A stretch of DNA of 64,000 nt from Spirochaetia bacterium (GCA_963677925.2 CAXXYH010000003.1:704001-768000), one strand, 5' to 3'; positions 1,064 to 50,525 are shown, numbered from the stretch's first letter. Program-made: numbers and translations. Notes: generated from the letters alone by a model not told the origin.

Positions 1064-2008
1064 ATGAAAATAGACCGTCTGTTATCAATCGTAGTATACC
1101 TTCTCAACAGAGAACTTGTCAGCGCCAGTGAGCTGGCAGATAAATTTGAGGTTTCGGTACGTACAATACAACGGGATATGGAAGCTATCGACCTGGCGGG
1201 GATTCCGGTTGTTACAGTCCAGGGTCCCCGCGGCGGCTACGGGATTATGAAGACATTTAAACTTGACCGTCAGCTTGTCAGCCCGGAAGATATTTTCTAT
1301 ATAATTACAGCGCTGAAGAGCATAAGCGATTCAATTGACAATCCGAAACTTGAGAATACTCTTGAAAAAATGAAAGGACTTATGCCCGGAGTACCGGGAG
1401 AATCCTTTTTAAAACATAGTTCCAAACTTCATATCGATTTTACAATGTTAGGCGGCGGACCCGATCAGAAGCGGATATTTCAGATAATAAATACCGCGGT
1501 AGAAAAGGAAAAACTGCTCAGAATCAGCTACACAAACAACAAACTGGAAAAAGATACCAGAATAATAGAGCCGATGACCATTGTTTTCAAATGGAGGGCA
1601 TGGTATCTCTATGCCTGGTGCAGAAGCAGGGAGGATTACAGGTTTTTCCGCATTTCGAGAATCAGGGAACCGGAAATCCTCGAGCGGGGATTTATCAGAA
1701 GAGATCAAGGCTATGAAGAGTTTGAATCGCGGAATTCATATGGTCCCACAGGTACCGGCAGCGGCAGTATTGAAATAAAACTGCATTTTAAAACACCTAT
1801 GACCGATCTGGTTGAAGAATATTACGATGAAAAGAACTGTGAAAAACTTGATGACGGCAGCATAATTTGTACGGTTTCAATGCCTGAAGACGGCTGGCTT
1901 TACGGCTATATTTTAAGCTTCGGTGAATATGTAGAAGTTCTTTCTCCGCCCCATCTGCGAAAGATAATAAAAGAAGGTGCCAAAAAGATTTCCGAAGTCT
2001 ATGATTAG
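1064..2008 (+). CDS. HTH-WYL-WCX transcriptional regulator (YafY/YobV family)
   Basis: N-terminal 'MKIDRLLSI...ELADKFEVSVRTIQRD' wHTH; 'WYLYAWCRSREDYRFFRISRI' WYL domain; C-terminal 'LSFGEYVEVLSPPHLR'. Confidence 0.92.
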   Translation: MKIDRLLSIVVYLLNRELVSASELADKFEVSVRTIQRDMEAIDLAGIPVVTVQGPRGGYGIMKTFKLDRQLVSPEDIFYIITALKSISDSIDNPKLENTLEKMKGLMPGVPGESFLKHSSKLHIDFTMLGGGPDQKRIFQIINTAVEKEKLLRISYTNNKLEKDTRIIEPMTIVFKWRAWYLYAWCRSREDYRFFRISRIREPEILERGFIRRDQGYEEFESRNSYGPTGTGSGSIEIKLHFKTPMTDLVEEYYDEKNCEKLDDGSIICTVSMPEDGWLYGYILSFGEYVEVLSPPHLRKIIKEGAKKISEVYD

Positions 2009-2202
2009 GGTTTCTCTTCAGTTAAAAACCAGTCGTATAATTCCTGTCCTGAATAAATTTCGGGCTGTATGTAGTGAGTACCCTTCTGTGTAATTGTATA
2101 TTTAATATTACCGCCTGCATTATTCAGCTTCATAATAAAATTGATTTCATCCTTAATCTGTATAGGGAGATCATCCAATTCACTAGAAGTCCATACTGGC
2201 AG
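2005..2202 (-). pseudogene. Truncated C-terminal remnant of an alpha/beta-hydrolase (esterase/peptidase)
   Basis: Manual translation gives LPVWTSSELDDLPIQIKDEINFIMKLNNAGGNIKYTITQKGTHYIQPEIYSGQELYDWFLTEEKP*. It is preceded by an in-frame TAG and resembles the 'PVW...AGG.V.YT...H...Y...LYDWFL' hydrolase C-terminus. Confidence 0.5.
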
Positions 2203-2305
2203 CTAAAAAACCTTTTATGCCAGCACTTAGAATCTGAATTTTTTTCAACCCTCTCTTTTTTATATTATTTAAATCATCAGTAGAGATACAGACTGCCAGT
2301 GCAAT

Positions 2306-3436
2306 TCACTCTCTCAGCATTTTACGGTAATAAGCTGAACTTCCGGTCTCTGAGATCTCCAGTATCAGCTTCGCTGTAAAGCTGCCTATACCGCGGATTG
2401 CGGTTAACTCTTCATAACTCATTTCTGCAATCGGCTTGTCATTTTTAGTGAGAGAATAAACCGCATAACCATATGGGCTTTCACGATTTTTAAGCTTCAG
2501 CAGCCAGTCAAGCTGTTCCAGAATAAGTATAATAAGTTCATCCCTCGAGACTATAGACTCAAAAATCTCAGAAGGTATTCGTTTTGCCATAGCATATCTG
2601 GATGCGGCAGTATTAAAGCGCCCGGCGATAGCTGATGTATATGCCGAAGACGGTGCCCCCCAGCTGTTTTCATTACTATAAATCTTGTCGTATCCGTTTT
2701 TTAATTCAGGATGGTAATTATCCAGAAAATTCATAAAATAATCTTTCTGCCTGCCCGGTTTAAGTGTCATACCGCTGAATACAACGTAATCTGCTCCGGC
2801 CTTTGATGCAGCCGCTACTGACGCATCGATCTGCTCTGCAGAATCTGTAATGCCCGGAACAACCGGCATAAGAAACATTCCGCAGTTAAGTCCGGCCGCT
2901 TTTATGCTTTTCATAAGAGCAAGACGCTTTGAAGGCAGAGGCACCCCCGGTTCCAGCAGTTTTCCGAGTTCATCATCAACAGTTGAAAAACTGAAACTGA
3001 CCGTTGCCCCTGTGTTTCGGTTAATATCAAGCAGAAGTTCCAGATCCCTCTCAACCAATGTTGATTTAGTCAGGATATGAACCGGATGATTAAACTCACG
3101 GAAAAGTTCCAGAGTCTGCCGGCATAGCTGAAGATCCGTTTCAAAGGGCTGGTATGAATCGCTTACTCCGCCGCAGATGATAAAATATCCGTTTTTAAAG
3201 GGTTTTCGCTTCCTGGAAGGATCAAGCTCCTTTCTCAGAAGTTCAATTGCATTGCTTTTTACACTCACATCACGTCCGAAAACGCCTTCAACCTGATATT
3301 TTTCATCACGGCCGTCACAGTAAACACAATTATGAGTGCATCCTCTGTACAGGTTTATAGCATATGCGCTAACAAACCAGGAATCGATCTTCTTATACTT
3401 CCTTAATATGCTTTTAGCCTCTATTTCAGTAATCAT
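2306..3436 (-). CDS. SplB-like (spore-photoproduct-lyase-related) radical SAM protein with C-terminal helix-hairpin-helix
   Basis: 'INLYRGCTHNCVYCDGR' CxxxCxxC, 'SDSYQPFE', 'ILTKS', C-terminal 'IRGIG' HhH. The ATG at 3436 overlaps the upstream gene end. Confidence 0.85.
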   Translation of the reverse strand: MITEIEAKSILRKYKKIDSWFVSAYAINLYRGCTHNCVYCDGRDEKYQVEGVFGRDVSVKSNAIELLRKELDPSRKRKPFKNGYFIICGGVSDSYQPFETDLQLCRQTLELFREFNHPVHILTKSTLVERDLELLLDINRNTGATVSFSFSTVDDELGKLLEPGVPLPSKRLALMKSIKAAGLNCGMFLMPVVPGITDSAEQIDASVAAASKAGADYVVFSGMTLKPGRQKDYFMNFLDNYHPELKNGYDKIYSNENSWGAPSSAYTSAIAGRFNTAASRYAMAKRIPSEIFESIVSRDELIILILEQLDWLLKLKNRESPYGYAVYSLTKNDKPIAEMSYEELTAIRGIGSFTAKLILEISETGSSAYYRKMLRE

Positions 3437-4286
3437 CCGTAATGAAGTCTTTCCTTTTAAAATGTCTGTCCTTGTATTTATATTCGTCAATATTCAGCAA
3501 ATCAAGGACTAGAAGAGGATCCTTTTTTACCAGATTTCTGCAGGCTCTGTATGCAATCCAGTGAGAATCCGGGTTTCCGGATTCTGCAAGCTGTTTAACA
3601 ACAGGGAAAGTAAGTTCAGGGTTTATCCTCAGCCAGTCGCTGAGGCTGTTACCTGCTGAAGTTCTGGGATAGGGAGAAGATTCAGTATACAGTAGTTTCA
3701 GCACAGAAAATGCGAAATCGGGAGCATTCTTAAACCAGCGATTCTCTGCTACCGGTCGCAGCGATTCAGAAGCAAAACGTCTATGCAGGGGATTATCGGA
3801 TACAGCCATTTCCAAATACCAGGGTTTGACGAGCGCGTTGTGTGATTTCACGAGCTTCCTGATGAAGCCGGAACTGCATTCCCTCACAATCCAGTCTTCA
3901 TCTTCAGAAGCTTTTCTGAATAATGACATAACAGGGTCTAAATCACCTGTTTCTTGAGCATACAGTGATGCCAGCTGAATACCCAGGCTTCTGACAAATG
4001 TATCATTCTCTGTATTTTTGTACAGAAGACTTCCGGCATCGAGAATCTCATCAATATCTAATAAGCCGGATTCCAAAATGAATATGCCCAGCTCCATCAC
4101 GACAGAATAGCGGCCGATTGATATTCTCTTCTTATCGGGTATTGATGCATGCAGAAGCCTGATAAGCTCTTCTGTTTGCGGGCCTGCTGAAACAGTGTCA
4201 AAAACTCCCCAATCTGAGAGACTTCTTTGTAATTCAGAAATTATTTCAGGCTTAATTATTTTATAAGGATAGTTATTATTTCTCAC
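3426..4286 (-). CDS. HEAT-repeat DNA alkylation repair protein (AlkC/AlkD-like)
   Basis: HEAT-like repeats 'DEDWIVRE', 'RRFASESLRP', 'YPRTSAGNSLSD'. Confidence 0.75.
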   Translation of the reverse strand: MRNNNYPYKIIKPEIISELQRSLSDWGVFDTVSAGPQTEELIRLLHASIPDKKRISIGRYSVVMELGIFILESGLLDIDEILDAGSLLYKNTENDTFVRSLGIQLASLYAQETGDLDPVMSLFRKASEDEDWIVRECSSGFIRKLVKSHNALVKPWYLEMAVSDNPLHRRFASESLRPVAENRWFKNAPDFAFSVLKLLYTESSPYPRTSAGNSLSDWLRINPELTFPVVKQLAESGNPDSHWIAYRACRNLVKKDPLLVLDLLNIDEYKYKDRHFKRKDFITDDY

Positions 4287-4380
4287 AGATTAAATATACC
4301 ACGCAGGAATCAATTTTCACAGAATGCATTCGACGATTTTTCTTGACGAATTAGCAAAGTCGTGTAAAAGTAAAAGTTAC

Positions 4381-5244
4381 ATGTTAGAAGCACCTGTGAA
4401 AAATCAGTGGATCAACAATAATTATTCTATCGGTGAGGTCTCAAACATATTCGGTATTCCATCAAAAATGCTGAGATACTGGGATAGTATTAATCTGTTA
4501 AAACCATATAACGTCGATCAGATTAATGGCTACAGATACTACTCCTCATCTCAGTTTTATCTAATTAATTTCATTAAATACCTTAGAAAACTAGATGTCT
4601 CATATGACATGATTAAGACAAAGTTGAATGAAACAAACATCCAGAGTCTTGAAGAGCTGATGATAGAGCAGATAAATGAGACAGAAAACAAGGTAAGAGA
4701 GCTCTCTAATATCAAAAAGACCTTCACAAGCCATATAGAATCTATAGAAGAGGCTCTGCATAATAAAGAAGTCGAAGTTATTCACATTGCCAAGGCAAAG
4801 GATTTTAAGCTGATATATCTTGAATATCCCTTTGATAACCGAAAAGATTTTGAAATAGCTGTGAGAAAACTTGAATCTGTTCTTGAAGGCAATCCCACGC
4901 TTTTGATTTCACAGGTTTCCACTGTATTCAGCAAGGACGATTTTATTAACGGTACTTATAATCAGTTTATTGGAATCAGCCTTAAATACGGTATATATAA
5001 ATCCCGCAATAAATATGTTCAAAAAGTACCGGAGGATTCCGAATACGCTACGATGAGGTTCTGGGGCAGTCTCAATAACTCTGACGATTATTATAATAAG
5101 CTTAAAGATTTTCTGAAAAATGAAGATTATGAAATTGCCGGCGATGTTATCAGAAAATGTGTAGCACCCGGTACCATATCCGGAAAGCATGACCATCTTG
5201 CAGAGCTTTATGTTCCCGTAAAAAAAATTAATAAAAATATTTGA
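4381..5244 (+). CDS. MerR-family transcriptional activator with GyrI-like effector domain (BmrR-like)
   Basis: 'YSIGEVSNIFGIPSKMLRYWDSINLLKP...NGYRYY' MerR HTH, coiled coil, GyrI-like C-terminus 'ELYVPVK'. Start is 4381 or nearby. Confidence 0.88.
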   Translation: MLEAPVKNQWINNNYSIGEVSNIFGIPSKMLRYWDSINLLKPYNVDQINGYRYYSSSQFYLINFIKYLRKLDVSYDMIKTKLNETNIQSLEELMIEQINETENKVRELSNIKKTFTSHIESIEEALHNKEVEVIHIAKAKDFKLIYLEYPFDNRKDFEIAVRKLESVLEGNPTLLISQVSTVFSKDDFINGTYNQFIGISLKYGIYKSRNKYVQKVPEDSEYATMRFWGSLNNSDDYYNKLKDFLKNEDYEIAGDVIRKCVAPGTISGKHDHLAELYVPVKKINKNI

Positions 5245-5271
5245 CCTTCCCACAGTGGTAAGGTTTACCAT
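5241..5271 (+). promoter_or_regulatory. MerR-type promoter/operator of the GRE operon
   Basis: TTGACC (5241-5246), 19-bp spacer, TACCAT (5266-5271). Dyad ACCTTCCCAC-A-GTGGTAAGGT (one mismatch) spans the spacer. Confidence 0.85.
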
Positions 5272-5303
5272 CATTTATACCAAAATAAATGAGGGTTTAC
5301 CTA

Positions 5304-6227
5304 TTGGCTGATCAACACATAAAGGGCTGGGTTTTCGATATTCAGCACTACTCTATTCATGACGGGCCCGGAATAAGAACAACTGTATTTCTAAGCGGCT
5401 GTTCATTAAGGTGCAAATGGTGCCAGAACCCGGAATCTCATACAATTAAACCGGTATTATCTTTTAATGCTGATAAATGCATAACATGCGGCGCCTGCAT
5501 CAGTGTATGTCCGGAGAAAGCGATCTTTATTGAAGATAATAAAATACATACAAACCGCAAATTGTGTACGGCATGCGGAGCCTGTGTGCCCGTCTGTCCT
5601 ACTGAAGCCCGAAGTATAATCGGCAAGGAAATGACAGCGGCTGAAGTTATTGCTGATGTCGAATCGGACAAGATTTTTTACGAAGGTTCAGGAGGGGGAG
5701 TAACTTTAAGCGGAGGGGAAATCCTTTTTCAGCCTGAATTCTCCCGGACACTGCTGGCAATGCTAAAAGAAGCTGGAATATCAACTGCAGTTGAAACCAC
5801 AGGAAACGCGGACTGGGAAGTAGTAAAAGACACTATAAAAGATGCCGATCTTGTTCTTTATGACCTTAAACACATGGATTCCGAAGGACATAAATTCGGT
5901 ACAGGTGTAGGGAATAAAAGAATTCTTGAAAACATAGTTAAAATTAAGAAAGAACTGAATATTTCTGTCAATATTCGTATCCCCCTTATACCTGGATATA
6001 ACGATTCATCAGAAAATCTGAATCAGACAGCCCGATTCATCAAAGAGCAGCTGGGTGAAGACACACCGGTAAGTCTTCTTCCTTATCATCGAATGGGAAT
6101 CGGGAAATGGGAACAGCTTGAAAAAGAAGCTCCTTCCTTTGAGGCTGATCCGCCTGATGATGCACATATGAATTCTGTAAAATTTATTTTCGATCAGTAT
6201 AACCTGATCAGTCAGATTGGAGGCTAA
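5304..6227 (+). CDS. Glycyl-radical enzyme activating enzyme with ferredoxin-like insert
   Basis: 'HDGPGIRTTVFLSGCSLRCKWCQNPE', two CxxCxxCxxxCP motifs, 'GGVTLSGGE', 'LLPYH'. Start is TTG 5304 (after GAGGG) or ATG 5289. Confidence 0.93.
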   Translation: MADQHIKGWVFDIQHYSIHDGPGIRTTVFLSGCSLRCKWCQNPESHTIKPVLSFNADKCITCGACISVCPEKAIFIEDNKIHTNRKLCTACGACVPVCPTEARSIIGKEMTAAEVIADVESDKIFYEGSGGGVTLSGGEILFQPEFSRTLLAMLKEAGISTAVETTGNADWEVVKDTIKDADLVLYDLKHMDSEGHKFGTGVGNKRILENIVKIKKELNISVNIRIPLIPGYNDSSENLNQTARFIKEQLGEDTPVSLLPYHRMGIGKWEQLEKEAPSFEADPPDDAHMNSVKFIFDQYNLISQIGG

Positions 6228-6228
6228 A

Positions 6229-8616
6229 ATGACACCAAGAATTGAAAAGATGCTGAATGAGCTGCATGTCGAAAAATACCCCCTGTGCATTGAAAAATTC
6301 CGCATCGCAACCAAGACTCTTTCAGAAACCGAGGGGCAGCCGAATGTTCTGCGTCGTGCGCAGATTATGAAGAATATCCTCGAAAACATAACAATTTTCA
6401 TCGAAGACGGCGATCTTTTTGCCGGCGCCGGTGCAAGCAAGCCATTCGGACTTGAGATTGATTATGAATACGGAACCTGGACTCCGGATGAGGTTGATTC
6501 GCTCAAATCCGAAAACTACAGCATTACCCCTGAAGAAGAGAAAGAACTTCAGGAAATTAATGAAAAATTCGGTGATTACAACCTTGTTTCAGCTATGGGC
6601 GCTGTCTTTATGAAGAATGAAAAACTCTGGCCGTTTATGAAATCAGGAATGATTCTCCCTCCATGGAAGGGAAAAGAAGGAAGCGGCGGCGGATATGCAC
6701 AGTCAGGTCTCGGACTGGGACCCGGCTTCTTTCTTGTCGGTATGGATTTTGAAAGAATGTTAAATGACGGTTCATTAAAAATCATCGCGGACTGTGAAGC
6801 AGCACTTAAAGAACATGAAGCCAATGGAAATCCTGATAAGGAAGCTGTAGACTTTCTTAAATCTGTTATTATTGTTCACCATGCAGTAATAAAACTGGCT
6901 GAGAGATATGCTGATCTGGCAGAAAAAATGGGTGCTGAAGAAAATGACAAGCGGAGAAAAGCAGAACTTTTCAGAATTGCTGAAGCCTGCCGAAAAGTTC
7001 CTGCCAAACCAGCTGAATCCTTCTTTGAAGCAATTCAGTCTTTCTGGTTAACATTCCTGCTTGCATCACCATCACCTACAACAGCCGGTGCCCGATTCGA
7101 CCAGTTCATGTATCCATTCTATAAAAAGGATATTGAAAACGGTGTAACAAATGATGATGAAATTCTCGAACTGCTTGAGAACCTCAGAGTCAAAGACATG
7201 AAGCTTAACCGGGTTTCAGGAAAACAGAATAGAAAGAAAAATGCAGGCATGGCAAAATGGCATAACTGGACTATCGGAGGTGTAGATAAGGACGGTAATG
7301 ATGCCAGCAACCCGCTCACCTACCTTCTTCTTGATGCAGCAAAAGAAACCAGAGTGCCGCATCATACCCTGACACTTCGTGTTCATGACAAAACACCTGA
7401 TGATCTTATGGTAAAGGCTCTTGAAGTCGTAAAAACCGGTATGGGAATGCCTGCCTTCGTAGGAGATAAATCCTACATCAACTTCTTCCGCTATCAGGGG
7501 ATGTCCATTGAAGACTCACGCAATTACATTATGACCGGATGTCTAGATGGAAATATCCCGGCGAAAGCAAGAACTGTTGCCGTAGGAATGTTCATAATTG
7601 CACTTGCATACGATATCTTCATGCACAACGGATATAACAAGGGTACAGAGGAAATGGTCGGTATTGAAACCGGTGATGTAACCGGAATGTCTGATTTCGA
7701 CCTGTACAAGGATGCATTCTACAGGCAGCTCGACTATCTTCTTGAACTTGGAGTTGAAAAAAGCAATATCGAGCTTAAAGCTGAACAGGATCTTTTCCCC
7801 GACCCATTCAGATCATCACTTATGAAAGATGCTATCAAGGAAGGCAAGGACATTCTCAGAAGAACCATGCCGCTTGAGAACGGACTTGTTCTCTGTACAA
7901 TTGGAGCAATAAACGTAGCAGACTCGCTGGCTGCAGTTAAAAAGCTTGTGTTTGATGAAAAGAAATACACAATGCAGGAACTTCTCACTGCGCTGGATGC
8001 TGACTGGGAAGGTTACGAAGAAATGCGGCAGGATTTCCTTGACGCACCAAAGTACGGTAATGACATTGATGAAGTTGATGTACTGGCAGCAGAGCTGTAT
8101 GACCATATAGAAAAGAAGCTGGCCTCGATGCCTACTTACTACGGCGGACGTGCAGTAACAACTGCTATTTCAATAACCTCGCACCAGCCGGGTGGACTTC
8201 TTACAGGAGCAACACCAGACGGACGAAAGAGCGGGGAGATTCTTGCAGACGGTTCAATGTCCCCGATGCATGGTATGGACAGAAAAGGCCCTACGGGTGT
8301 TCTAAAGAGCGCAATGAAAATCAACCAGGACACCTACCAGGCAACTCTGTTAAATATGAAATTTCATCCATCTGCTCTTAAGACAGAAGCTGATCTTGTA
8401 AAACTCGGAAACCTGATTAAAACTTATTTTGCCCAGGGCGGAAAACATATGCAGTTCAATATAGTTGATAAAGATCATCTAATTGCTGCAAAGATTGATC
8501 CTGAAAAGCACAAGGATCTTGTAGTAAGAGTTGCCGGCTACAGTGCTTATTTTACAGCGCTTGGGGAACCAATGCAGGACGAAATTATCGAAAGAACTGA
8601 ATTCTCTCAGGTTTAA
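6229..8616 (+). CDS. Glycyl-radical enzyme (PFL2/non-PFL class), substrate unknown
   Basis: Gly loop 'LVVRVAGYSAYF', single-Cys loop 'MTGCLD', 'RFDQFMYPFY', 'PKYGND', 'ATPDGR'. GGAGG RBS precedes ATG 6229. Confidence 0.92.
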   Translation: MTPRIEKMLNELHVEKYPLCIEKFRIATKTLSETEGQPNVLRRAQIMKNILENITIFIEDGDLFAGAGASKPFGLEIDYEYGTWTPDEVDSLKSENYSITPEEEKELQEINEKFGDYNLVSAMGAVFMKNEKLWPFMKSGMILPPWKGKEGSGGGYAQSGLGLGPGFFLVGMDFERMLNDGSLKIIADCEAALKEHEANGNPDKEAVDFLKSVIIVHHAVIKLAERYADLAEKMGAEENDKRRKAELFRIAEACRKVPAKPAESFFEAIQSFWLTFLLASPSPTTAGARFDQFMYPFYKKDIENGVTNDDEILELLENLRVKDMKLNRVSGKQNRKKNAGMAKWHNWTIGGVDKDGNDASNPLTYLLLDAAKETRVPHHTLTLRVHDKTPDDLMVKALEVVKTGMGMPAFVGDKSYINFFRYQGMSIEDSRNYIMTGCLDGNIPAKARTVAVGMFIIALAYDIFMHNGYNKGTEEMVGIETGDVTGMSDFDLYKDAFYRQLDYLLELGVEKSNIELKAEQDLFPDPFRSSLMKDAIKEGKDILRRTMPLENGLVLCTIGAINVADSLAAVKKLVFDEKKYTMQELLTALDADWEGYEEMRQDFLDAPKYGNDIDEVDVLAAELYDHIEKKLASMPTYYGGRAVTTAISITSHQPGGLLTGATPDGRKSGEILADGSMSPMHGMDRKGPTGVLKSAMKINQDTYQATLLNMKFHPSALKTEADLVKLGNLIKTYFAQGGKHMQFNIVDKDHLIAAKIDPEKHKDLVVRVAGYSAYFTALGEPMQDEIIERTEFSQV

Positions 8617-8625
8617 CTAGGGTAT

Positions 8626-8649
8626 AATGCCGGAGGAGGACCCGGCATT
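8626..8649 (+). other. Intergenic hairpin (mRNA stabiliser or weak terminator)
   Basis: AATGCCGG-N8-CCGGCATT between the GRE and transporter genes. Confidence 0.45.
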
Positions 8650-8672
8650 TAAATATTTACTTTCAAGGGGGA

Positions 8673-9959
8673 GTGATGACGATTATCATCATCAGTCTAA
8701 TTGCAATTGTTGCTGTAATTGCATTAGGAGCTAAAACTAAAACTAATATAGGTCTGTGGGCTATAGCTGCAGCCTATATTATCGGAGTCTTTGTCCTTGG
8801 CGAATCACCACGAGGTTTAGTGGGAGTATTTCCAACAAGACTATTTCTGCTGCTTTTTTCTGTTACACTTTTCTACAGCTTTGCCGTACTTAACGGAACA
8901 CTAGGAAAAGTCGCGGATAAGGTCGTTTATGCTGTCCGGAACATGCCATGGGCAATTCCCATTGTACTGTTCATACTGTCATTTATTATGGCTGCGATAG
9001 GAGCCGGAGACGGTGCTACCGTTATGATGATTCCTATCGGTCTGTCCATAGCTAAAGTTACCGGAATGAATAATATTCTTGCCGCGGTATCCTGTGTATC
9101 AGGTATCAGTGCAGGAGGTTTTTCACCGATAAGTACCGCAGGTATCTTCCTCAGGGAGATGGCCATGACTGCAGGCGGACATTCGATTGACGAAGTAAAC
9201 AGTTATGGAAACCATGCGTTTTTCCAGATTACACTTCTTTTCACAATTATATTTATTGCTGCTTATATCCTCTTCAAGGGATATAAAATTGAAGCACCGG
9301 TTCTTGAAAAACCTGAACCCTTCGAACCGAAACAGAAGGCAAACCTTGCTGTTATTATCGGCTTTGTTCTAGTTCTGGTTGCGGCACCGCTTGTTGGACT
9401 TATTTTCCCGAACAGCCCTGCTGCTGCAAAAATAGCCCGCGGTGTATACCTGGTCTGGATTGCCTTCATCGGTACAGTAGTTCTCTCTGTACTGAAAGTC
9501 GGTGATGAAAAAGCAGCTTTTAAACGTGTCCCTCTTTCCGCACTTACAACACTCTGCGGTATGGGAACACTTATCGGAATAGTCAGCAAAACCGGAGCCA
9601 TTGAGATGGTATCGACATGGCTCGGAGAAAGTGTTCCGGTTGCAATCGTACCGATTATGCTTGCACTTATTGCCGGAGTAATGAGTCTTTTTGTAAGCGG
9701 ATTCGTAGTTAACACTACTTTCTTTGCCCTGGTTCCTGCTCTGGCAATAGCCGGCGGATTTGTACCGGGTATCGGCTATGCAGCTGTAGCAGTCGGAGCA
9801 ATGGCTACTGCAGTCTCTCCGTTCTCAGGTTCAGGCGGTCTTGTAGTCGCAAGCGTTGACGATGACGGTCACAGAAAAACAATTTTCAATTTCCTGCTTG
9901 GCTGGCCGTTTATAAACCTTGCACTCTATTTAATTATGGTTGCTATAGGTATCTATTAG
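8673..9959 (+). CDS. SLC13/DASS-like (MatC-type) di/tricarboxylate carrier
   Basis: About 12 TM segments; 'NIGLWAIAAAYIIG', 'FPTRLF', 'NGTL', 'GGFSPISTAG' and 'SPFSGSGG' repeats typical of MatC_N/CitMHS carriers. Confidence 0.75.
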   Translation: MMTIIIISLIAIVAVIALGAKTKTNIGLWAIAAAYIIGVFVLGESPRGLVGVFPTRLFLLLFSVTLFYSFAVLNGTLGKVADKVVYAVRNMPWAIPIVLFILSFIMAAIGAGDGATVMMIPIGLSIAKVTGMNNILAAVSCVSGISAGGFSPISTAGIFLREMAMTAGGHSIDEVNSYGNHAFFQITLLFTIIFIAAYILFKGYKIEAPVLEKPEPFEPKQKANLAVIIGFVLVLVAAPLVGLIFPNSPAAAKIARGVYLVWIAFIGTVVLSVLKVGDEKAAFKRVPLSALTTLCGMGTLIGIVSKTGAIEMVSTWLGESVPVAIVPIMLALIAGVMSLFVSGFVVNTTFFALVPALAIAGGFVPGIGYAAVAVGAMATAVSPFSGSGGLVVASVDDDGHRKTIFNFLLGWPFINLALYLIMVAIGIY

Positions 9960-9980
9960 CATCGTCCTAATAATTCCTTT

Positions 9981-11681
9981 TCATTTTGCTCCGGCTGAAG
10001 TTTCAGCTAAAGCCGGAGCCCTTTTTTTTGTATTAAGTGAATTCATTTTTTTACTGAAACTGTTAAGCTGACTGACATTTTCCTGTCCAATTTCAGAGAC
10101 TCTTACAGCCTGGGCTTCTGCATCAGTGAACATTCTTTTTATATCAGATATTGTTTCAGCTACGGTTTCTGCTTTGCTTACTATCTCATCGAGCTTCTCT
10201 GTATTCTGTGCATTTATATTCTCAAGGTTTTTCATAGCTTCATCTGCAAGAGCTGATTTATCAACTATTCCTTCAATTTCCGACAGAATAGCACCAGTCC
10301 CCTGAGACATCTCATCTATACCTGCAGAAGCCTCCCTGAACATCGATGAAACCTTTCGTATTTCTTCTGTAATTAAATGAAATGTCTGCCCTACTCTCTG
10401 ACTGGCTTCAGTAGTTCTGCTGACTGCAGATATACTTTCTGATAGACGTTCAGAAATATTCCTTGAATTTTTAGCTGTTTCTTCCGCCAGTTTTCTTATT
10501 TCATCTGCAACAACAGCAAAACCTTTACCTGATTCACCTGCATGGGCTGCTTCAATTGCAGCATTCATTGCCAGCAAATTTGTCCGTTCAGCAATGCTCA
10601 TAATAATCTGGACCATCTCAAGCATGTCAGAGGAACTCTTGTCGATACTGTTAATCAACTCGACAGAATCATCCATTTCAGATTCACCCGACATCGAGGA
10701 TTTAACCAGGGCCTCCACAGCCTTCATCTGCGAGGCCGTATTTGATGAAATTGAATTAATGTTGGCAATCAGCTGTTCTACGGAAGAGGATGTAGTCTGT
10801 ACCGTCAGATTGTATTTTTCCAGGGTTGAATTGAGAAACTCTACTGATTCAACAGATTTTTTATTGGCTCCTGACATTTCAAATATGCTTGTTTCCAATT
10901 CTTCAACAGAGTCTTTTATCCGGTTTAAATCTAATGAAACCCTGCTGATCGTATCAATAGATGTATCTGATGAACTCCTCAGCTCCTCGCCTATTCCGGT
11001 GAAAATTTCAAATGTTTCATGGACACCCGTATTAAACTCGGCAAAATGTTTCTGAACTTCTGCCTTTGAATCTTCCGCATCTTTCACAAGAGTTTTAAGC
11101 AGCCGCAGTATCATAACTGCTGTAAAGCCTGAGCCGATAACAATTATATAACAGGTAACAAGATTCTGAACATCCAGGATACCGACCTGCCCCTTCTGCG
11201 AGGGAAGAACATCAATAAAGTAAATTGCAGCTATTGCTCCACAGTTTAATATAGTTGCAGCAACAGGCTGGAATATAGAATATCCAACAAGACAGGTAAT
11301 AATCAGAAAAAACAACCCAAGTGCTGAAATTACGTAGGTTTCATATACATCTACATATGCATCAAACTTGATTGTTGCAAAAATTATAAAAAAGAATACT
11401 GTCAGAAATAAATTTACGGCAATTTTAAAATTTCCTTTTTTAATCAGTAAAAGAAAAAATAAGCAGCAGACAGCCAGAACTGAAGTCATAACCATAGCAA
11501 CAACCGCTCCGGTTAAAGCCATTGCAAGTGTCAGCAACAGAGAAAGTATAATAAAAAGAAAATTGATAACTACAAGAATCGAAGCTTTTTTCTGAACTTC
11601 GAGCGGACGTTCTGAATAACATTTTAAGAAATATGCACTTGTTCTACTCATATTTAAATTTATATTGATTTTAATTGACAT
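9981..11681 (-). CDS. Methyl-accepting chemotaxis protein with multi-TM sensor
   Basis: '[38 protein letters not shown]' signalling hairpin; about 6 N-terminal TM helices. Confidence 0.93.
9988..10029 (+). terminator. Rho-independent terminator of the GRE operon, lying inside the 3' end of the convergent MCP gene
   Basis: GCTCCGGCT...AGCCGGAGC stem followed by T8. Confidence 0.7.
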
Positions 11682-11691
11682 GTCCAGCTGT

Positions 11692-12465
11692 TTATTTATT
11701 AATTATATTTTCAAACCTTTTAACACTGATGGGATGATAGCTAAGGATTTTCCCGTCATGAATAATTCCGAATGAACCGAAGGGACTCGGAGATTCCTGA
11801 ACCTGTTCATGTGAACTGAGTTCTATCAGCTGAGAATTTAGCCTTTTTTCTTCAGCAGCTTTTATTATGGCGTCAACATTCTTAACCGTGTACGGGCATT
11901 GGGCTGATCTGAAAATATAAAGCCCCATCGAAAACTTTTCCGGGAAGATTTTCCGGAATTCCGGATTTGGATATGCATCATCAAATTTATTAACAAGCAG
12001 TTCAAAATCAGGCTTAGATGAATCTGATACTTTAAAATTGTTATTTATAAAAATGCCGCTGTCAGCCATGAAAGATCCCCTGCGGGCAACAACTGCAACG
12101 CCTTTATATCCGGAATTACGGCTTTCTTTTATACATTCTTCAATCAGCAGTGAGGCATAACCTCTGCCTTTGTATTCTTTTCTAAATCCCACAAAGAGAC
12201 AGTGTATAAACATGTAGCCTTCAGCTTTCACCGGTCTGTGTGCATATTCTCCGGGAATATATTCTATCATTCCCTGATATCCGCCCTCTGGATGTATCAG
12301 TGCTTTTATCCGGAGCCCCTTCGGGTAGTATTTTTTTACCCAGTCGATTTTCCGCCTCAGTTCAAGATGCTTTTGCACATCCTTATATCCGCAGACACCG
12401 TACTCTGCTATGTTATCCGGTGTAAGATCAATTATCTTAATATCATCTGATACGGCTTTTGACAT
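11692..12465 (-). CDS. GNAT acetyltransferase with YoaP-like C-terminal domain
   Basis: '[14 protein letters not shown]', '[14 protein letters not shown]', 'QCPYT', 'SPSPF'. Probable ATG at 12465. Confidence 0.82.
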
Positions 12466-12535
12466 TTTTCTACCCTCTGAAACTATAATACTTCCCTGCT
12501 GCATTTTCTGCTTTGCAATCTTTGCGAAATTTAAT

Positions 12536-12555
12536 TACGACATACTGCTGTCGTA
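12536..12555. promoter_or_regulatory. Palindromic operator upstream of the GyrI-like/Zn-ribbon genes; candidate WYL-regulator site
   Basis: TACGACA-N6-TGTCGTA with perfect 7-bp arms. Confidence 0.6.
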
Positions 12556-12601
12556 TACAGGGTGCAATAATGAATTATCGTTAAAACAAAGGAGTTCCAT
12601 T

Positions 12602-13054
12602 ATGAAGATAATTCAGAAGGAAGAACAGCCGACTATGGCTGTAAAAGGAATCACAACAATGCAGGAGATACCTGCCTTTCTTGCAAAAGCATATGGAGAG
12701 ATAGCCGAATATGCTCAAAATCTTGATATTCAGTTCACAGGTGCGCCCTACGCAATGTATTTCAACATGGATATGGATAATCTGGAAATTGAAGCCGGCT
12801 TTCCAGTTTCAGGAACTTTCGAAAAAAGAGGTAATGTAAATTCCGGACATCTTCCCGGAGGAAAGATGCTGATTGAAACGCATAAGGGCACATACGCAAA
12901 TCTTAGTGAAACATACGACAAAATTAGCGAATATGCGAAAGATAAGGGTATAGTTTTTGAAACAGCCATGTATGAACAGTACCTGAATTCACCCGAGGAT
13001 ACAAAGCCTGAAGACCTTATCACAGAAATTTATTTTTATATTAAGGAAGAATAA
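12602..13054 (+). CDS. GyrI-like small-molecule-binding domain protein
   Basis: 'GAPYAMY...EAGFPV...HKGTYANL..TY...YEQYLNSP...LITEI'. AGGAG RBS before ATG 12602. Confidence 0.88.
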   Translation: MKIIQKEEQPTMAVKGITTMQEIPAFLAKAYGEIAEYAQNLDIQFTGAPYAMYFNMDMDNLEIEAGFPVSGTFEKRGNVNSGHLPGGKMLIETHKGTYANLSETYDKISEYAKDKGIVFETAMYEQYLNSPEDTKPEDLITEIYFYIKEE

Positions 13055-13057
13055 CAG

Positions 13058-13321
13058 ATGAATGAAGTAAAATACAAAAATTGTCAGAGCTGCGGTATGC
13101 CTATGAAACAGGACCCGAAAGGCGGGGGAACCGAACCAGACGGGTCTCTGAATAATAAATACTGCAGTTACTGCTATGAAAACGGAGCCTTTGTTCAGCC
13201 AGAGATGACAATGGCTGAAATGAAATCGCTGGTCAGAGAACAGCTTAAAAAAATGAAGATGCCCGGCTTCATAGCTTCATTTTTTGCTGCCGGAATTCCC
13301 AAACTGGAACGCTGGCAGTAA
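13058..13321 (+). CDS. Zinc-ribbon domain protein (Zn_ribbon_2 type)
   Basis: 'CQSCGMP...GGTE.DGS...YCSYCYENG', ending 'LERW'. Confidence 0.85.
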   Translation: MNEVKYKNCQSCGMPMKQDPKGGGTEPDGSLNNKYCSYCYENGAFVQPEMTMAEMKSLVREQLKKMKMPGFIASFFAAGIPKLERWQ

Positions 13322-13332
13322 TACTAATTTTA

Positions 13333-14772
13333 TCAGGCTTCAGCCCTCAATTCCGGCTGAAGCTGTATATTTTTATAATCATCCTTTTCAGTTTCCATAT
13401 CAGCTTTTCTTTCCTCATCAGCCCTGCCGAGCTTCTTTAATTCTACAATAAGCAGGATATAGGTAAGTACTGATGATAAGGTGTCTGCAACAGGGAAAGT
13501 TCCCCATACACCATCAAGCCCTATTATAAGCGGAAGTATAATAAGAACAGGCAGAAACAGCAGCAGCTGTCTTGAAAGACCGAGAAGCATTGACTGCTTC
13601 GCTTTTCCTACGGCCTGAAAATAGCTGATTCCGATAAACTGCACCGCCACCAGTGGAATTGATACCATTACTATTCTGAGCACTCTTGCACTGGATTCAA
13701 TTATCGCAGTGTCTGATGTAAAAAGACCCATACAAGCCTGGGGAAAAATCATGGCAATACTGTAGCCTACCATCGTAACTGACAATCCGGTAATTATTGC
13801 AGTCTTAAGGCTTTGCTTAACCCTGTCATAATTCTTTGCACCGATATTGTAGCCTGCAATCGGCTGAAAGCCCTGTGCAATCCCGATTATAGGCATAATC
13901 AGCACAGACATAAACCGGTTTGACATTCCGTAGTTTACTATGGCTTCTTCTCCGCCGTAATGCCCAAGCGAATTGTTAACAATCAGAACAAGCAGACTCA
14001 TCCCTGCATTCTGAATAAAGGGCGGAATACCGAGAATGACACTTTCTTTCAGAATTTTTGTATCAATTCTAAAATATTCAGGTCTAATCTTTACTGTATT
14101 TTTTTTCCTTACATAGATACTTATGAAATACAAGGCGGAAACCATCTGACTTATGGAAGTGGCAATAGCAGCACCCATAACGCCGAGGTCAAAACCGAAT
14201 ATAAACAGGGGGTCAAGCATACAGTTAAGGACTGCCCCCACCATCATTCCTATCATTGCGCCTTTTGAGTTTCCTTCCGCTCTTGCCATTGTACTTGCAA
14301 AGGATGAAAAAGCAAAAAAGAAAAATCCGATTGAAACCCATTTTGTATATTCCGATGTAAGCGGCATAAGCACATCTGTAGTTCCGAAAAATCCAAGTAT
14401 AGGCCTCATAAAAATAACAAGTGTTGCAGTAAGAATAAATGTTCCTGCAAGCATGGAAGTGTATCCGGTTCCTACTGCTTTCGATGCATCATCAAACCGT
14501 TTTTCTCCAAGTCTTCTTGATACAATGGAGGCTGTACCTATTCCCAGAGCCATTGCTATCGAGGCAACAATCATCTGAATTGGAAAAACCAGAGATAGTG
14601 CTCCTATTGCGAGCGACCCTACCCCTCTTCCAACGAAAATAGTATCAACAATGTTATATAACGCCTGTACAAGCATTCCAGCTGCAGCAGGTGCGGCCAT
14701 CTTTATTAAAAGAGGGAATATCTTCTCTTTTCCCAGAAATTCTGATTTATCTGTATTATTCATATCTTTCAT
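13333..14772 (-). CDS. MATE family efflux transporter (MepA-like)
   Basis: 'LYNIVDTIFVG', 'LDPLFIF', 'QGFQPIAGYNIGAK'; 12 TM. Confidence 0.92.
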   Translation of the reverse strand: MKDMNNTDKSEFLGKEKIFPLLIKMAAPAAAGMLVQALYNIVDTIFVGRGVGSLAIGALSLVFPIQMIVASIAMALGIGTASIVSRRLGEKRFDDASKAVGTGYTSMLAGTFILTATLVIFMRPILGFFGTTDVLMPLTSEYTKWVSIGFFFFAFSSFASTMARAEGNSKGAMIGMMVGAVLNCMLDPLFIFGFDLGVMGAAIATSISQMVSALYFISIYVRKKNTVKIRPEYFRIDTKILKESVILGIPPFIQNAGMSLLVLIVNNSLGHYGGEEAIVNYGMSNRFMSVLIMPIIGIAQGFQPIAGYNIGAKNYDRVKQSLKTAIITGLSVTMVGYSIAMIFPQACMGLFTSDTAIIESSARVLRIVMVSIPLVAVQFIGISYFQAVGKAKQSMLLGLSRQLLLFLPVLIILPLIIGLDGVWGTFPVADTLSSVLTYILLIVELKKLGRADEERKADMETEKDDYKNIQLQPELRAEA

Positions 14773-43877: not shown

Positions 43878-45251
43878 ATGAGTATCTACAATACAGAAGC
43901 CATTTCCCGCCTGATGAGAAATTCAGCGGCAGAGAAGAACCAGCTTAGTATCACAACACTTTGCGACAGTAAGTGCATCTACTGCGGTCAGAAGCAGGAT
44001 TTTACTGATTTCCAGTCAGTACGAAACGGGCATAAGGATATTACAGCAATCCGAAACAGTATTGCTCAGCTTGATCCGGAAATTCCGATTTCAATAGGAC
44101 AGTCGGATATCCTTGTAACTGAAGGAGAACCATTTCTGCACCCGGATTTCAGAAAGATAATAAGGCATATACGGGATATACACCCTGCCGCCCCGATTGA
44201 GATTACAACAAACGGACATTTTCTGACAGCTGATAATATTAACTTTCTTAATGATATGGGTGATGTTTATATCAAGGTCATTATTAACAGTTCTGAATCC
44301 TATATCAGAAAATCTGTCATGGGTGATCATGAGCTTCTCTCTGAAAATACAATTAACGGAATTATTCTTCTCGGTGAATCAGAGATTACTTACAGCGGAA
44401 TAATAATAGCCGTACCCGAGCTGATTGACGAAGAACAGCTGCTTCAGACAGCTTTATTCCTTGACGCTAATAGAGCTGATAAAATAGAAATCAGCCTGCC
44501 TTTATGCTCCGCTTTTATTGAACGTAACCTTTTTCCTGAGCTGCGGAAAGTATACTGTGAGCTCCGTTCTAAAATAAAAAATATTTCCTCTCGGATAAAT
44601 ACCCCTATAAACCTGGCGTCAGAACTGATACAGGATTTACTTCCTGTTGTCACCGGGGTAGTTAAAAACGCTCCGGCCTGGGACGCAGGAATCAGAACCG
44701 GTGACATTATTCTGGCTGTAAACGGAAAGATTCCTTTATGCAGAGAAGATGCTTTCAATATGCTCTCTATACCGGGACCTGTAGAAGCTGCTGTAAAATG
44801 TGATGAATCAGTGGAAACTCTCAAATGGTCAAACCCATATCAGTATTGTTCAGGAATTATAATGGAAAATGACTTCAGCCCAAACCGGGCTGAATATATC
44901 CGGATGGCAGTTGAAAAAAACAAGGGTAAATCACTTCTGCTGTGTTCAGAGACAGGGTTCGGAATCCTCTCTGCTGTTTTAAAAAAGCTTAAGCTGAAAC
45001 AGGATGACGCTCAGGCAGTTCTTGTTTCCTGCGAAAGATCTGACAGCCTTATCGCAACAGATAAGATTCTCAGCATCGACGACTATGAAAATGCCTATAG
45101 GATGTTTATGGCTGATTCCGTTGAAAAAGCTAATCAAATCACTCAGCTGATTCTGCCTCAGGAAAGTTTTGATTCTGAAGGCTATGATTATAATATGCTG
45201 GATTTCATGGATCTTGAATCAAGAACCGGATTGAAGGTTACAGTAATTTGA
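43878..45251 (+). CDS. Radical SAM-PDZ-DUF512-like protein
   Basis: 'TLCDSKCIYC', 'EGEPFLHP', 'ITTNG', PDZ 'VTGVVKNAPAWDAGIRTGDIILAVNG', C-terminal 'LILPQESFD.EGYD'. Confidence 0.75.
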   Translation: MSIYNTEAISRLMRNSAAEKNQLSITTLCDSKCIYCGQKQDFTDFQSVRNGHKDITAIRNSIAQLDPEIPISIGQSDILVTEGEPFLHPDFRKIIRHIRDIHPAAPIEITTNGHFLTADNINFLNDMGDVYIKVIINSSESYIRKSVMGDHELLSENTINGIILLGESEITYSGIIIAVPELIDEEQLLQTALFLDANRADKIEISLPLCSAFIERNLFPELRKVYCELRSKIKNISSRINTPINLASELIQDLLPVVTGVVKNAPAWDAGIRTGDIILAVNGKIPLCREDAFNMLSIPGPVEAAVKCDESVETLKWSNPYQYCSGIIMENDFSPNRAEYIRMAVEKNKGKSLLLCSETGFGILSAVLKKLKLKQDDAQAVLVSCERSDSLIATDKILSIDDYENAYRMFMADSVEKANQITQLILPQESFDSEGYDYNMLDFMDLESRTGLKVTVI

Positions 45252-49182: not shown

Positions 49183-49851
49183 TCAGTCGAGATTTACAAT
49201 CTTAAAATCATCAGCTTTTACAACATCAGCATCAGTTGATTCAAGAACAAATTCTGCGGTATATGGAGCAAAAACTTCTTTCATAATGAATTTTCCGCCC
49301 TCAATTTTGAAGACTCCGACATCTGTAACAAGATAGTCTACCTGGTTTACAGCAGTCAGAGGAAGAGTACACTCTTTAAGGAGCTTTGATGTTCCGCTTT
49401 TTTCAAAGTGAACGCCGGCACAAATAACGGTCCGGGCACCGACAACCAGGTCCATAGCCCCCCCCATACCGGGAACCATTTTTCCGGGAATCTTGTAATT
49501 TGCCAGGTTTCCGTTCTGGTCAACCTGAAGCACACCAAGAACTGTGTAGTCTACATGACCGCCCCTGATTATACCGAAAGAAGTAGCTGAATCAAAGTAA
49601 CAGCCGCCGTCAAGCAGTGTTACAGGCATTCCGCCCGCATTAACAAGAGTCAGATCTTCCTCACCCTCGGCAGGTACAGGTCCAAGACCTAGAAAGCCGT
49701 TTTCAGACTGAAGGGTAATTTTCACATCCTCAGGAATATAGTTACCTACAAGGGTAGGAAGACCGATTCCGAGGTTAACCACATCACCGTTGCTGAAAAA
49801 CTGTGCAATTCTTTTTGCGATTATTTCTTTATTTGGCGTATACTCCATCAC
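49183..49851 (-). CDS. atoA: 3-oxoacid/acetate CoA-transferase subunit B
   Basis: 'VNLGIGLPT', catalytic 'SENG', 'IRGGH', 'GMGGAMDL'. Confidence 0.9.
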   Translation of the reverse strand: MMEYTPNKEIIAKRIAQFFSNGDVVNLGIGLPTLVGNYIPEDVKITLQSENGFLGLGPVPAEGEEDLTLVNAGGMPVTLLDGGCYFDSATSFGIIRGGHVDYTVLGVLQVDQNGNLANYKIPGKMVPGMGGAMDLVVGARTVICAGVHFEKSGTSKLLKECTLPLTAVNQVDYLVTDVGVFKIEGGKFIMKEVFAPYTAEFVLESTDADVVKADDFKIVNLD

Positions 49852-50525
49852 TTATCCCCCTGTACAAGAAAATTAACAAAAACTGCGGGAGTAATGATAG
49901 TTTCAGGATCAAGCTCACCTATTTCAACAATTTCATCAGCCTCAACAATAACAATTTCACATGCAGTTGCCATCATAGGGTTAAAATTTCTTGCAGACTT
50001 GGAATATACAACATTGCCGGCCTTATCTGCTTTTGATGCCTTTATAAGCGCAACATTTCCTTTCAGAGGTTTCTCAAGAATATACTTAATTCCATCCTCT
50101 TCAATAACTGTTTTACCGATTTCAACTTCAGTACCGACTCCTGTAGGAGTGAGAAACCCGCCGAGACCGCATCCGCCTGCACGAATCTTCTCGGCAAGAG
50201 TTCCCTGAGGAACAAGCTCAACTTCAGTTTCTTCAGCTATCATCTGACGCTGGATTTCCTGATTTAGTCCGATATGCGAAGCAATTACTTTTTTGAACTG
50301 CTTGTCGCGGATATTTGCATAAACACCGTTCTGCTTACCCATTTTCTCATTATCCCATCCGCAGTCGGTGGAAATAAGAGTCATGTCTTTTCTGCCGCTG
50401 TCTTTCAATGCTTTTAGAAGTTTAGGCGCAGCTCCGCAGCCCATGAATCCGCCGGACATTACAATATCGCCGTCGGAAATCTTTTTAACAGCTTCCTCAG
50501 CGGTTAAAATTTCTTTTTCAACCAT
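49848..50525 (-). CDS. atoD: 3-oxoacid/acetate CoA-transferase subunit A
   Basis: 'GGFMGCG', 'ASHIG', 'PQGTLAEKIRAGG', 'ARNFNP'. Confidence 0.9.
   Translation of the reverse strand: MVEKEILTAEEAVKKISDGDIVMSGGFMGCGAAPKLLKALKDSGRKDMTLISTDCGWDNEKMGKQNGVYANIRDKQFKKVIASHIGLNQEIQRQMIAEETEVELVPQGTLAEKIRAGGCGLGGFLTPTGVGTEVEIGKTVIEEDGIKYILEKPLKGNVALIKASKADKAGNVVYSKSARNFNPMMATACEIVIVEADEIVEIGELDPETIITPAVFVNFLVQGDK

Follow-up and report, generated by a model that had tools for sequence, protein, structure and literature searches.

The glycyl radical enzymes (GREs) characterised so far each opened anaerobic pathways of ecological or medical weight, among them those of choline to trimethylamine, of hydroxyproline, of isethionate to H2S and of skatole. 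According to a June 2026 review (PMC13450708), all GRE eliminases and isomerases, among them the glycerol and propanediol dehydratases, HypD, CutC, IslA, HpsG, HplG and YbiW/PflD, keep a CXE (Cys-x-Glu) motif, Glu is reported at the CXE position in HPAD and IAD, and in the GRE decarboxylases an acidic residue that follows the Cys donates the proton. His164 is the proton donor in glycerol dehydratase, and its equivalent in HypD, His160, is essential. The same review states that whole GRE clades lack validation. Here we describe a GRE operon from a Spirochaetia bacterium (GCA_963677925.2, CAXXYH010000003.1:704001-768000; this whole stretch of 64,000 nucleotides is called the window), which consists of four intact, co-directional + strand genes (4324-10029) for a regulator, an activase, a GRE and an anion carrier. 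The GRE is assigned from its sequence to a clade that has Asp in place of the CXE Glu (the Cys-x-Asp clade), outside every characterised GRE family, and we consider it probable that the operon, as a catabolic module under inducible control, serves the use of an anionic organic acid taken up from outside. An earlier reading of this DNA, made from the sequence alone, had named the same genes (regulator, activase, a GRE of about 795 amino acids and an SLC13/MatC-like carrier), and profile matches were obtained for all four. The features of the operon are as follows.

4324 or 4381-5244, + strand: MerR-family regulator (ATG at 4324 or 4381; N-terminal helix-turn-helix, C-terminal effector domain)
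5241-5271, + strand: predicted MerR-type promoter, read directly from the sequence
5289-6227, + strand: glycyl-radical enzyme activating enzyme (activase), radical SAM with two ferredoxin-like clusters
6229-8616, + strand: GRE, 795 amino acids (Pfam and NCBIfam profiles, predicted fold)
6679-6732, + strand: Gly-rich segment GSGGGYAQSGLGLGPGFF, GRE residues 151-168 (column counts, alignment to 1r8w)
7231-7266, + strand: basic stretch RKKNAGMAKWHN, GRE residues 335-346 (column counts, glycerol dehydratase alignment)
7537-7551, + strand: Cys loop G437-C438-L439-D440-G441 (translation, HMMER alignment)
8527-8547, + strand: glycyl radical motif RVAGYSA, GRE residues 767-773, Gly770 codon at 8536-8538 (Pfam Gly_radical)
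8673-9959, + strand: MatC/CitMHS-type anion carrier, 428 amino acids (start GTG at 8673 or ATG at 8676, after GGGGGAG)
9988-10029, + strand: intrinsic terminator (hairpin 9988-10019, then U8 ending at 10029)

The GRE and its Cys-x-Asp clade

The GRE matches the Pfam models PFL-like (PF02901, 519.6 bits) and Gly_radical (PF01228, 107.9 bits against a cut-off of 22.2). With an RVxG[FYW] motif, a barrel Cys and an adjacent activase all present, it is classified as a member of the PFL-like branch of the GRE superfamily. Window positions 7522-7560 translate to NYIMTGCLDGNIP, with the Cys codon at 7540-7542 and the Asp codon at 7546-7548, in agreement with the MTGCLDG loop that the sequence-only reading had placed there. 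In the HMMER alignment C438 falls on the catalytic Cys of choline lyase CutC and of glycerol dehydratase, and GCLDG stands opposite GCVEP of both enzymes, hence the Asp replaces the CXE Glu, as that reading had held. The loop, TGCLD, has a single Cys and not the two adjacent Cys of pyruvate and 2-ketobutyrate formate-lyases. The Gly-rich GSGGGYAQSGLGLGPG (residues 151-166) and the basic RKKNAGMAKWHN (335-346), both noticed earlier, are present and conserved in the clade.

None of the NCBIfam GRE equivalogs (CutC, HypD, HpsG, HpfG, IAD, HPAD, PflD-type and PFL) was reached, all of them scoring about half of the cut-off or less. The best was HpsG with 513.4 bits (cut-off 1000), and the others included CutC (TIGR04394; 473, cut-off 1050), HypD (447, cut-off 1100), IAD (442, cut-off 1100), HPAD (352, cut-off 1150) and PFL (TIGR01255; 122.9, cut-off 994.2). 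The subfamily model TIGR01774 was likewise below its cut-off (529.4 against 678.2). Among solved relatives CutC (446 bits) has the highest sequence score, followed by glycerol dehydratase (437 bits). An AlphaFold model, built from a 14-row alignment (pTM 0.80, mean pLDDT 75.1), was compared by Foldseek with solved structures and gave TM-scores of 0.79-0.86 at 26-32% identity to more than 30 PFL2-type GREs. A literature search confined to a limited collection of papers found no characterised Cys-x-Asp GRE and no GRE tied to tartrate, PrpD or TTT systems; neither ‘CXD’ nor ‘aspartate’ occurs in PMC13450708. The proposal of an unassigned class is thus upheld by the profile scores, by the low identity to solved GREs and by the exclusive occurrence of CXE among the eliminases and isomerases in that review. 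The GRE is best seen as a known kind of enzyme that lacks characterised relatives and has a distinct substrate pocket and a putatively altered catalytic dyad. An unassigned state is normal for GRE clusters, which tempers the novelty of this one; of 60 representatives that are not Cys-x-Asp, CutC alone reaches an equivalog cut-off.

The clade was delimited by several searches. Among 8,000 scored candidates, 1,537 have E 1e-50 or better, and the best 120 of these are 58-100% identical to the query and carry generic names only. When the 50%-identity representatives were searched exhaustively with HMMER, 2,010 hits reached E 1e-30 or better. A scan of genome contigs returned 585 relatives, from which 79 loci (numbered L0xx) were retained and supplemented by the genome under study. 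In this set all 68 relatives of at least 40% identity have GC[LVIM]D, and the GREs of 35% identity or less all have another Cys loop, mostly GCVEP. The open reading frame (ORF) caller delivered 65 of the 68; in L040, L042 and L045 the GRE was lost to a longer antisense ORF, so these were translated directly (GC[LV]D) and left out of the neighbourhood counts. A FastTree tree of 141 full-length rows, midpoint-rooted and limited to the nearest representatives of the query, combined the query with the six other GREs of this genome and with 134 of the 150 top-ranking representatives. It places the query in an 18-row set (SH-like support 88) of 17 Cys-x-Asp rows and one Cys-x-Pro row, which lies inside a 20-row set (97) whose next neighbour is a Cys-x-Glu row, P0124 (93). 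Four other Cys-x-Asp rows stand elsewhere in the tree, which implies that the Asp arose more than once. P0147 and P0132, two close relatives within the 20-row clade, deviate from the pattern, since one has no catalytic Cys (GALSI, with a VRLGGGSC Gly loop) and the other shows GCLGV together with VRIGGCSA; both may be degenerate, or else may be radical enzymes of a non-canonical kind.

Members of the clade come from gut and rumen Bacillota, Spirochaetota, Acidobacteriota, Chloroflexota, Planctomycetota and deltaproteobacterial metagenome-assembled genomes. Within the Spirochaetia the distribution is patchy, with orthologues of at least 68% identity in 3 of the 40 other genomes searched. A genome of the same genus has a 48%-identical match (G001:C9:322218-323744) that covers residues 284-791 only and is interrupted by one in-frame TAG, probably a broken Cys-x-Asp paralog.

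When 72 Cys-x-Asp GREs were compared with 82 Cys-x-Glu GREs at each alignment column (query numbering), an active-site signature emerged. Besides the Asp, which follows the Cys in all 72 clade members, R335 and S648 are invariant (72/72 each); the Cys-x-Glu enzymes have mostly A, V or G at the former position and no conservation at the latter (P in 39, S in 20). The other signature residues are K/R337 (64/72; A or T in Cys-x-Glu), K/R343 (69/72; L or M), W344 (71/72; F), R448 (62/72; D, E or a gap), H652 (59/72; N) and T284 (62/72; I). At position 169, which corresponds to His164 of glycerol dehydratase, 59/72 Cys-x-Asp enzymes have Leu and 64/82 Cys-x-Glu enzymes have His, and 79-80 of the 82 Cys-x-Glu enzymes lack the two Gly-rich inserts that the clade has just before Leu169 (154-158 and 161-168). 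The stretch 335-346 aligns to the β2-β3 active-site segment of glycerol dehydratase and would, by homology, line the active site of the query. The four extra positive charges (R335, K337, K343 and R448) argue for a polyanionic substrate.

The operon, its regulation and the other GREs of the genome

The activase exceeds the cut-off of TIGR02494 (360.4 bits against 174.35) and has a Radical_SAM domain, a CX3CX2C motif read as CSLRCKWC and two Fer4 motifs. No activase equivalog of NCBIfam was reached, the best being the HypD activase model (343.6 against 425). The fourth gene matches MatC_N (102.2 bits against 23) and CitMHS (67.4 against 31.9) in Pfam and none of the NCBIfam families; its product is predicted to be a MatC/CitMHS anion carrier of the ion-transporter superfamily. 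The carrier co-occurs with the GRE in other genomes, and its identity tracks that of the GRE.

The GRE start codon is preceded at 6 nt by a GGAGG Shine-Dalgarno sequence, and the activase stop codon lies between the two, an arrangement that suggests translational coupling. The GRE and carrier genes are 56 nt apart, and between them lies a hairpin (8620-8658) followed by an A/T-rich stretch; the fold of 8612-8675 has a free energy of -17.6 kcal/mol (z -2.9, 1/200 shuffles equally good). The hairpin may act as a partial terminator, or as a stabiliser adjusting the ratio of enzyme to carrier. The sequence-only reading had the operon bounded by a promoter and a terminator. The terminator was found where expected, as a 9-bp GC-rich outer stem and an inner 3-bp stem followed by CC and U8 (9988-10029; -20.7 kcal/mol, z -4.45, 0/200 shuffles equally stable). 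A consensus terminator scan missed it because its loop limit was 3-8 nt, which makes long-loop terminators invisible. The hairpin contains the last codons of a convergent chemoreceptor (methyl-accepting chemotaxis protein) gene (9981-11681, - strand). A chemoreceptor is also near the Geosporobacter ferrireducens orthologue (L016, 2761-4518), which may be chance or may reflect chemotaxis to the substrate.

A promoter does exist, but it lies between the regulator and the activase and not upstream of the regulator. A σ70 consensus scan, restricted to spacers of 16-18 nt and blind to 19-nt ones, gave 11 sites against 13.2 expected, none of them usable and none on the + strand upstream of the regulator. 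Direct inspection of the 44-nt regulator-activase gap revealed a -35 box TTGACC (5241-5246) overlapping the regulator stop codon, a 19-nt spacer and a -10 box TACCAT (5266-5271), with a putative 21-bp dyad operator ACCTTcCCACaGTGGtAAGGT at 5244-5264. An over-long spacer (19-20 nt) that holds a dyad is the textbook form of a MerR-type promoter. The element is kept in the orthologous operons L014 (GRE 97% identical) and L015 (82%). Where the window has CCAC.A.GTGG as the inner arms, L015 has CCAA.A.TTGG, so that both arms are changed and the dyad symmetry is kept. The motif occurs in 5/102 loci, all five of which are orthologous operons. Genome-wide, the dyad has four sites at up to two mismatches against none for the reversed control, and one of them, with TTGACC-19 nt-TATAAT, stands directly upstream of a 44%-identical Cys-x-Asp GRE paralog (C4:213550). 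Given the position of the promoter, the regulated unit would be activase-GRE-carrier.

The N-terminal part of the regulator matches MerR_1 (50.8 bits). Residues 31-281 match weakly the NCBIfam model of a choline-utilisation MerR-type activator (49.8 bits against a cut-off of 450). The C-terminal half has no Pfam match, and its ESM Atlas features fall into GyrI-like clusters (0.94, 199 shared features), which we take as a lead only; the effector domain is probably GyrI-like. The protein is classed as a MerR-family activator with a predicted target promoter.

Outside the window, three further promoters with this architecture (TTGACC, an ACCTT...AAGGT dyad within a 19-nt spacer, and -10 TATAAT in the first two or TAGCAT in the third) were found at G000:C4:213493-213513, C4:934221-934241 and C4:2311559-2311579. 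The first stands directly upstream of the 44% GRE paralog; of the other two, one stands before a PucR-type regulator with ABC permeases and one before a URO-D-like gene. The PucR-type locus adjoins two class II dehydroquinases and a xylose-isomerase-like TIM barrel, and URO-D-like and PucR genes also adjoin Cys-x-Asp GREs in other phyla. The three promoters could form a MerR-paralog regulon, possibly tied to the use of hydroaromatic or aromatic acids; as to quinate or shikimate, no dehydroquinase was found beside any Cys-x-Asp GRE among the annotated neighbours.

The genome encodes seven GREs, five of the Cys-x-Asp type (100, 74, 58, 44 and 44% identical to the query) and two of the Cys-x-Glu type. 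Only two GRE activases exceed the cut-off, that of the operon and one beside a Cys-x-Glu GRE, and the former is the only activase linked to any of the five Cys-x-Asp GREs; hence it probably serves the four other paralogs too. The operon had been called self-contained, which is right in that it has its own linked activase, and wrong in that five enzymes probably share it. All four other paralogs adjoin MatC, TTT or TRAP genes. The 74% paralog is next to a MatC carrier 84% identical to that of the operon; this GRE-plus-MatC module (G000:C3:1383930-1387660, L008 7531-11261) is a duplicate that has neither regulator nor activase, and about 5-8 kb from it there is another MatC-like carrier and a 2-hydroxyglutaryl-CoA dehydratase-like gene. 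A 44% paralog has TRAP genes, a DHDPS-family aldolase and an AraC regulator as neighbours. Of the other paralogs, one neighbours TctBAC with PrpD-like and PGA_cap genes and one TctBAC with a MerR regulator.

Elsewhere in the window, the - strand region 2306-4286, divergent from the regulator, encodes a radical SAM/helix-hairpin-helix protein (394 amino acids) that overlaps by 65 nt a 286-amino-acid protein with weak HEAT/DNA-alkylation-repair-like matches. At 43878-47467 a radical SAM/PDZ protein adjoins a molybdopterin oxidoreductase. A long minus-strand cluster (49183-59403) with thiolases, 3-hydroxyacyl-CoA dehydrogenases, an enoyl-CoA hydratase, CoA-transferase subunits and phosphotransacylase/kinase-like genes belongs to butyrate-type metabolism.

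Gene neighbourhoods and the proposed reaction

Neighbours within five ORFs were counted at 55 Cys-x-Asp loci, many of them on short contigs. An activase is present at 24 loci, MatC at 16 (in Spirochaetota, Planctomycetota and Bacillota) and any carboxylate carrier (MatC, TTT, TRAP or CitMHS) at 26; when this genome and its near twin are excluded, MatC is found at 13/49 and any carboxylate carrier at 20/49. Other recurrent neighbours are PucR regulators (13/55), PGA_cap (12), Opp/Dpp-type ABC transporters (11), HGD-D (2-hydroxyacyl-CoA dehydratase-like, 8), PrpD-like proteins (7), MerR regulators (6) and CoA-transferases (6 + 4 loci, with family III at 6). Single contexts include an acyl-CoA dehydrogenase with electron transfer flavoprotein (ETF) at L016, an aldehyde:ferredoxin oxidoreductase with a zinc alcohol dehydrogenase at L046 and L052, a four-carbon acid-sugar kinase at L060, an isocitrate/tartrate-dehydrogenase-family (Iso_dh) gene at L067, CitMHS_2 at L054, URO-D-like proteins at L029 and L055, and tannase and other esterases at Acidobacteriota loci. 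The carrier counts and the four clade-conserved basic residues, which Cys-x-Glu enzymes do not have, lend indirect support to the earlier idea of an imported organic acid. No microcompartment or aldehyde/alcohol dehydrogenase domain was found among window ORFs of at least 120 amino acids or, in 2000-14000, of at least 60, in accordance with the sequence-only reading; the sole BMC shell genes of the genome are about 375 kb from the operon. Its further claim, that the product requires no dedicated downstream enzymes, is true of the window, but relatives adjoin CoA-transferases, 2-hydroxyacyl-CoA dehydratase-like, acyl-CoA dehydrogenase/ETF, PrpD-like and PGA_cap genes.

We tentatively propose, at somewhat less than even confidence and from the genomic context, that the GRE catalyses the radical β-elimination (dehydration) of an imported hydroxy-di- or tricarboxylate to an oxo-acid. 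The MerR/GyrI-like regulator would sense a small molecule and activate the 19-nt-spacer promoter (5241-5271), which would drive the activase, the GRE and the carrier. The MatC-type carrier would import the di- or tricarboxylate, and the activase would put the radical on Gly770, from where it would pass to Cys438. With the substrate held by R335, K337, K343 and R448, hydrogen would be abstracted from it, Asp440 would act as the acid/base in place of the Cys-x-Glu glutamate, and the neighbouring leaving group would be expelled, much as the diol, hydroxyproline and choline enzymes do, though here from a hydroxy-carboxylate. An oxo-acid would result and enter central metabolism, and this would explain an operon without downstream enzymes. 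β-Elimination is favoured because more of the context fits it, namely the aldehyde-handling enzymes, the aldolase, the sugar-acid genes and the processing of 2-hydroxy/2-oxo-acids; an eliminase with a carbonyl product fits the contexts of L046/L052, the DHDPS-family aldolase, L060, L067, HGD-D and the CoA-transferases. The acidic residue two after the Cys, common to the query, eliminases, isomerases and decarboxylases, is also in favour.

Several observations weigh against β-elimination of a hydroxy-carboxylate. The query has Leu169 at the His164 position, hence the canonical acid/base pair of eliminases is absent. The conserved basic residues, which may cluster around Cys438, could equally bind a sulfonate, a phosphate or several hydroxyl groups, and the AlphaFold model is least confident at the active-site loops (pLDDT below 50 at 144-167, 281-285, 329-344 and 653-668). 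The operon holds no oxo-acid- or aldehyde-handling gene, and its layout is like that of a transporter-plus-decarboxylase module. At 25/55 loci, many on short contigs, neither a carboxylate carrier nor Opp/Dpp lies within five ORFs, and the neighbourhoods are heterogeneous across the clade (peptide-type ABC transporters at 11/55, esterases, PGA_cap, PrpD).

The loss of the His partner and the minimal transporter-enzyme layout keep two other kinds of chemistry alive. According to the main rival, which we find doubtful, the GRE would use radical chemistry to decarboxylate an imported di- or tricarboxylate, as the aliphatic analogue of the arylacetate decarboxylases. Its substrates would have a CH2-COO- beside a radical-stabilising group (malonate-, glutaconate-, itaconate- or aconitate-type), and the carrier would swap the precursor for a product that needs no further enzyme. 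Such an enzyme would suit the minimal operon, a carrier family named after the malonate carrier MatC, and the loss of the eliminase His in the clade. The CoA-transferases, acyl-CoA ligase and acyl-CoA dehydrogenase/ETF (L016, L018, L021) fit the processing of unsaturated monocarboxylates, and the PrpD family, which neighbours the GRE at seven loci, includes cis-aconitate decarboxylase. On the other hand, for a thiyl radical to oxidise a plain aliphatic carboxylate by one electron is energetically demanding; the IAD and HPAD models (442 and 352 bits) are no closer than the eliminase models HpsG and CutC (513 and 473), and in other subfamilies the neighbouring aldolase and aldehyde-handling genes suggest carbonyl products. 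The acidic proton donor after the Cys that known GRE decarboxylases keep (PMC13450708) is again in accordance with a decarboxylase.

Unlikely, in our opinion, is another radical reaction on a dicarboxylate, such as a fumarate-type addition, forward or reverse, or the reaction of a C-C lyase or of a B12-independent carbon-skeleton isomerase or mutase. In each of these a succinate- or glutarate-like moiety would sit in the polybasic pocket. The tree nests the clade (SH-like 99) within a set of 30 rows, and most of the others in that set, unlike eliminases, have no acidic residue after the Cys (GCVMP, GCTLA, GCVHP, GCVIP and similar loops). The four conserved basic residues and the Gly-rich loops suit the binding of two carboxylates, the His of the eliminase dyad is missing, and the GRE isomerases have recently set a precedent for new classes of reaction (PMC13450708). 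Against this stand the strict conservation of the Asp (72/72), which implies acid/base chemistry, and a benzylsuccinate synthase score below those of the eliminases (312 against 446 bits). No X-succinate-synthase-like accessory subunits were seen beside the gene, and no methylaspartase- or mesaconase-type genes among the annotated neighbours. That the GRE is simply a known enzyme under a generic label (pyruvate formate-lyase, i.e. formate C-acetyltransferase, glycerol/propanediol dehydratase or choline lyase) is very hard to believe. Its homologues are publicly named ‘formate C-acetyltransferase’ or ‘pyruvate formate lyase family protein’ and its nearest solved structures are the glycerol/propanediol dehydratases and CutC, but the single Cys, the 122.9 bits to TIGR01255 (cut-off 994), the missing CXE Glu and His164 equivalent, the equivalog scores at about half of their cut-offs and the 26-32% identity to solved GREs all speak against it.

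A wider reading, improbable in our estimate, is that the Cys-x-Asp clade is a widespread new functional class acting on free di- or tricarboxylic acids by a chemistry new to the superfamily, with one activase serving a battery of paralogs. Examples would be a B12-independent carbon-skeleton rearrangement, or a Kolbe-type aliphatic decarboxylation with MatC exchanging precursor and product. If this were so, the class would be spread among anaerobes of gut, rumen and sediment. The clade is a large one (about 17/141 tree rows, more than 1,500 homologues at E 1e-50 or better). It combines a clearly altered catalytic apparatus with a consistent link to organic-acid uptake, and the operon is a compact test system in which a single activase, enzyme and carrier come with a defined promoter of the MerR type.

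Comparison with known GRE systems

The glycerol dehydratase of C. butyricum (PDB code: 1R8W) and the propanediol dehydratases (PDB codes: 5I2A/5I2G, 9RCO) have the same ten-stranded barrel as the predicted model of the GRE (TM-score 0.82-0.85), and share with it the RVAGYSA Gly loop, a single Cys with an acidic residue two positions on and an activase with extra Fe-S clusters. Identity to them is 28-32%. The query differs in having Asp440 for Glu435 and Leu169 for His164, two Gly-rich inserts and four extra conserved basic residues, and its operon has a carboxylate carrier instead of an aldehyde/alcohol dehydrogenase and a microcompartment. CutC (PDB codes: 5A0U, 5FAU, 9F3W) has the best sequence score among solved GREs and a TM-score of 0.84-0.86, and the operon regulator matches, weakly and over its full length, the choline-utilisation MerR-type activator model. 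The Cys loop, in contrast, is GCLDG and not GCVEP, the GGGD of CutC aligns to GGGY plus an insert, and TIGR04394 is below its cut-off.

The arylacetate decarboxylases (HPAD, IAD, PAD and AAD) are likewise encoded in small operons, have an acidic residue after the Cys and act on carboxylates, but the IAD and HPAD models are far below their cut-offs, no small subunit gene is present here, and the carrier type together with the polybasic pocket suggests a polyanion and not an aromatic monoacid. The X-succinate synthases (benzylsuccinate synthase, PDB code: 4PKC; MASS, PDB code: 9O8U) are GREs that bind a free dicarboxylate, fumarate. They score lower (312 and 344 bits), no accessory subunit genes adjoin the GRE here, and the acidic residue after the Cys is, in the Cys-x-Asp clade, strictly conserved.

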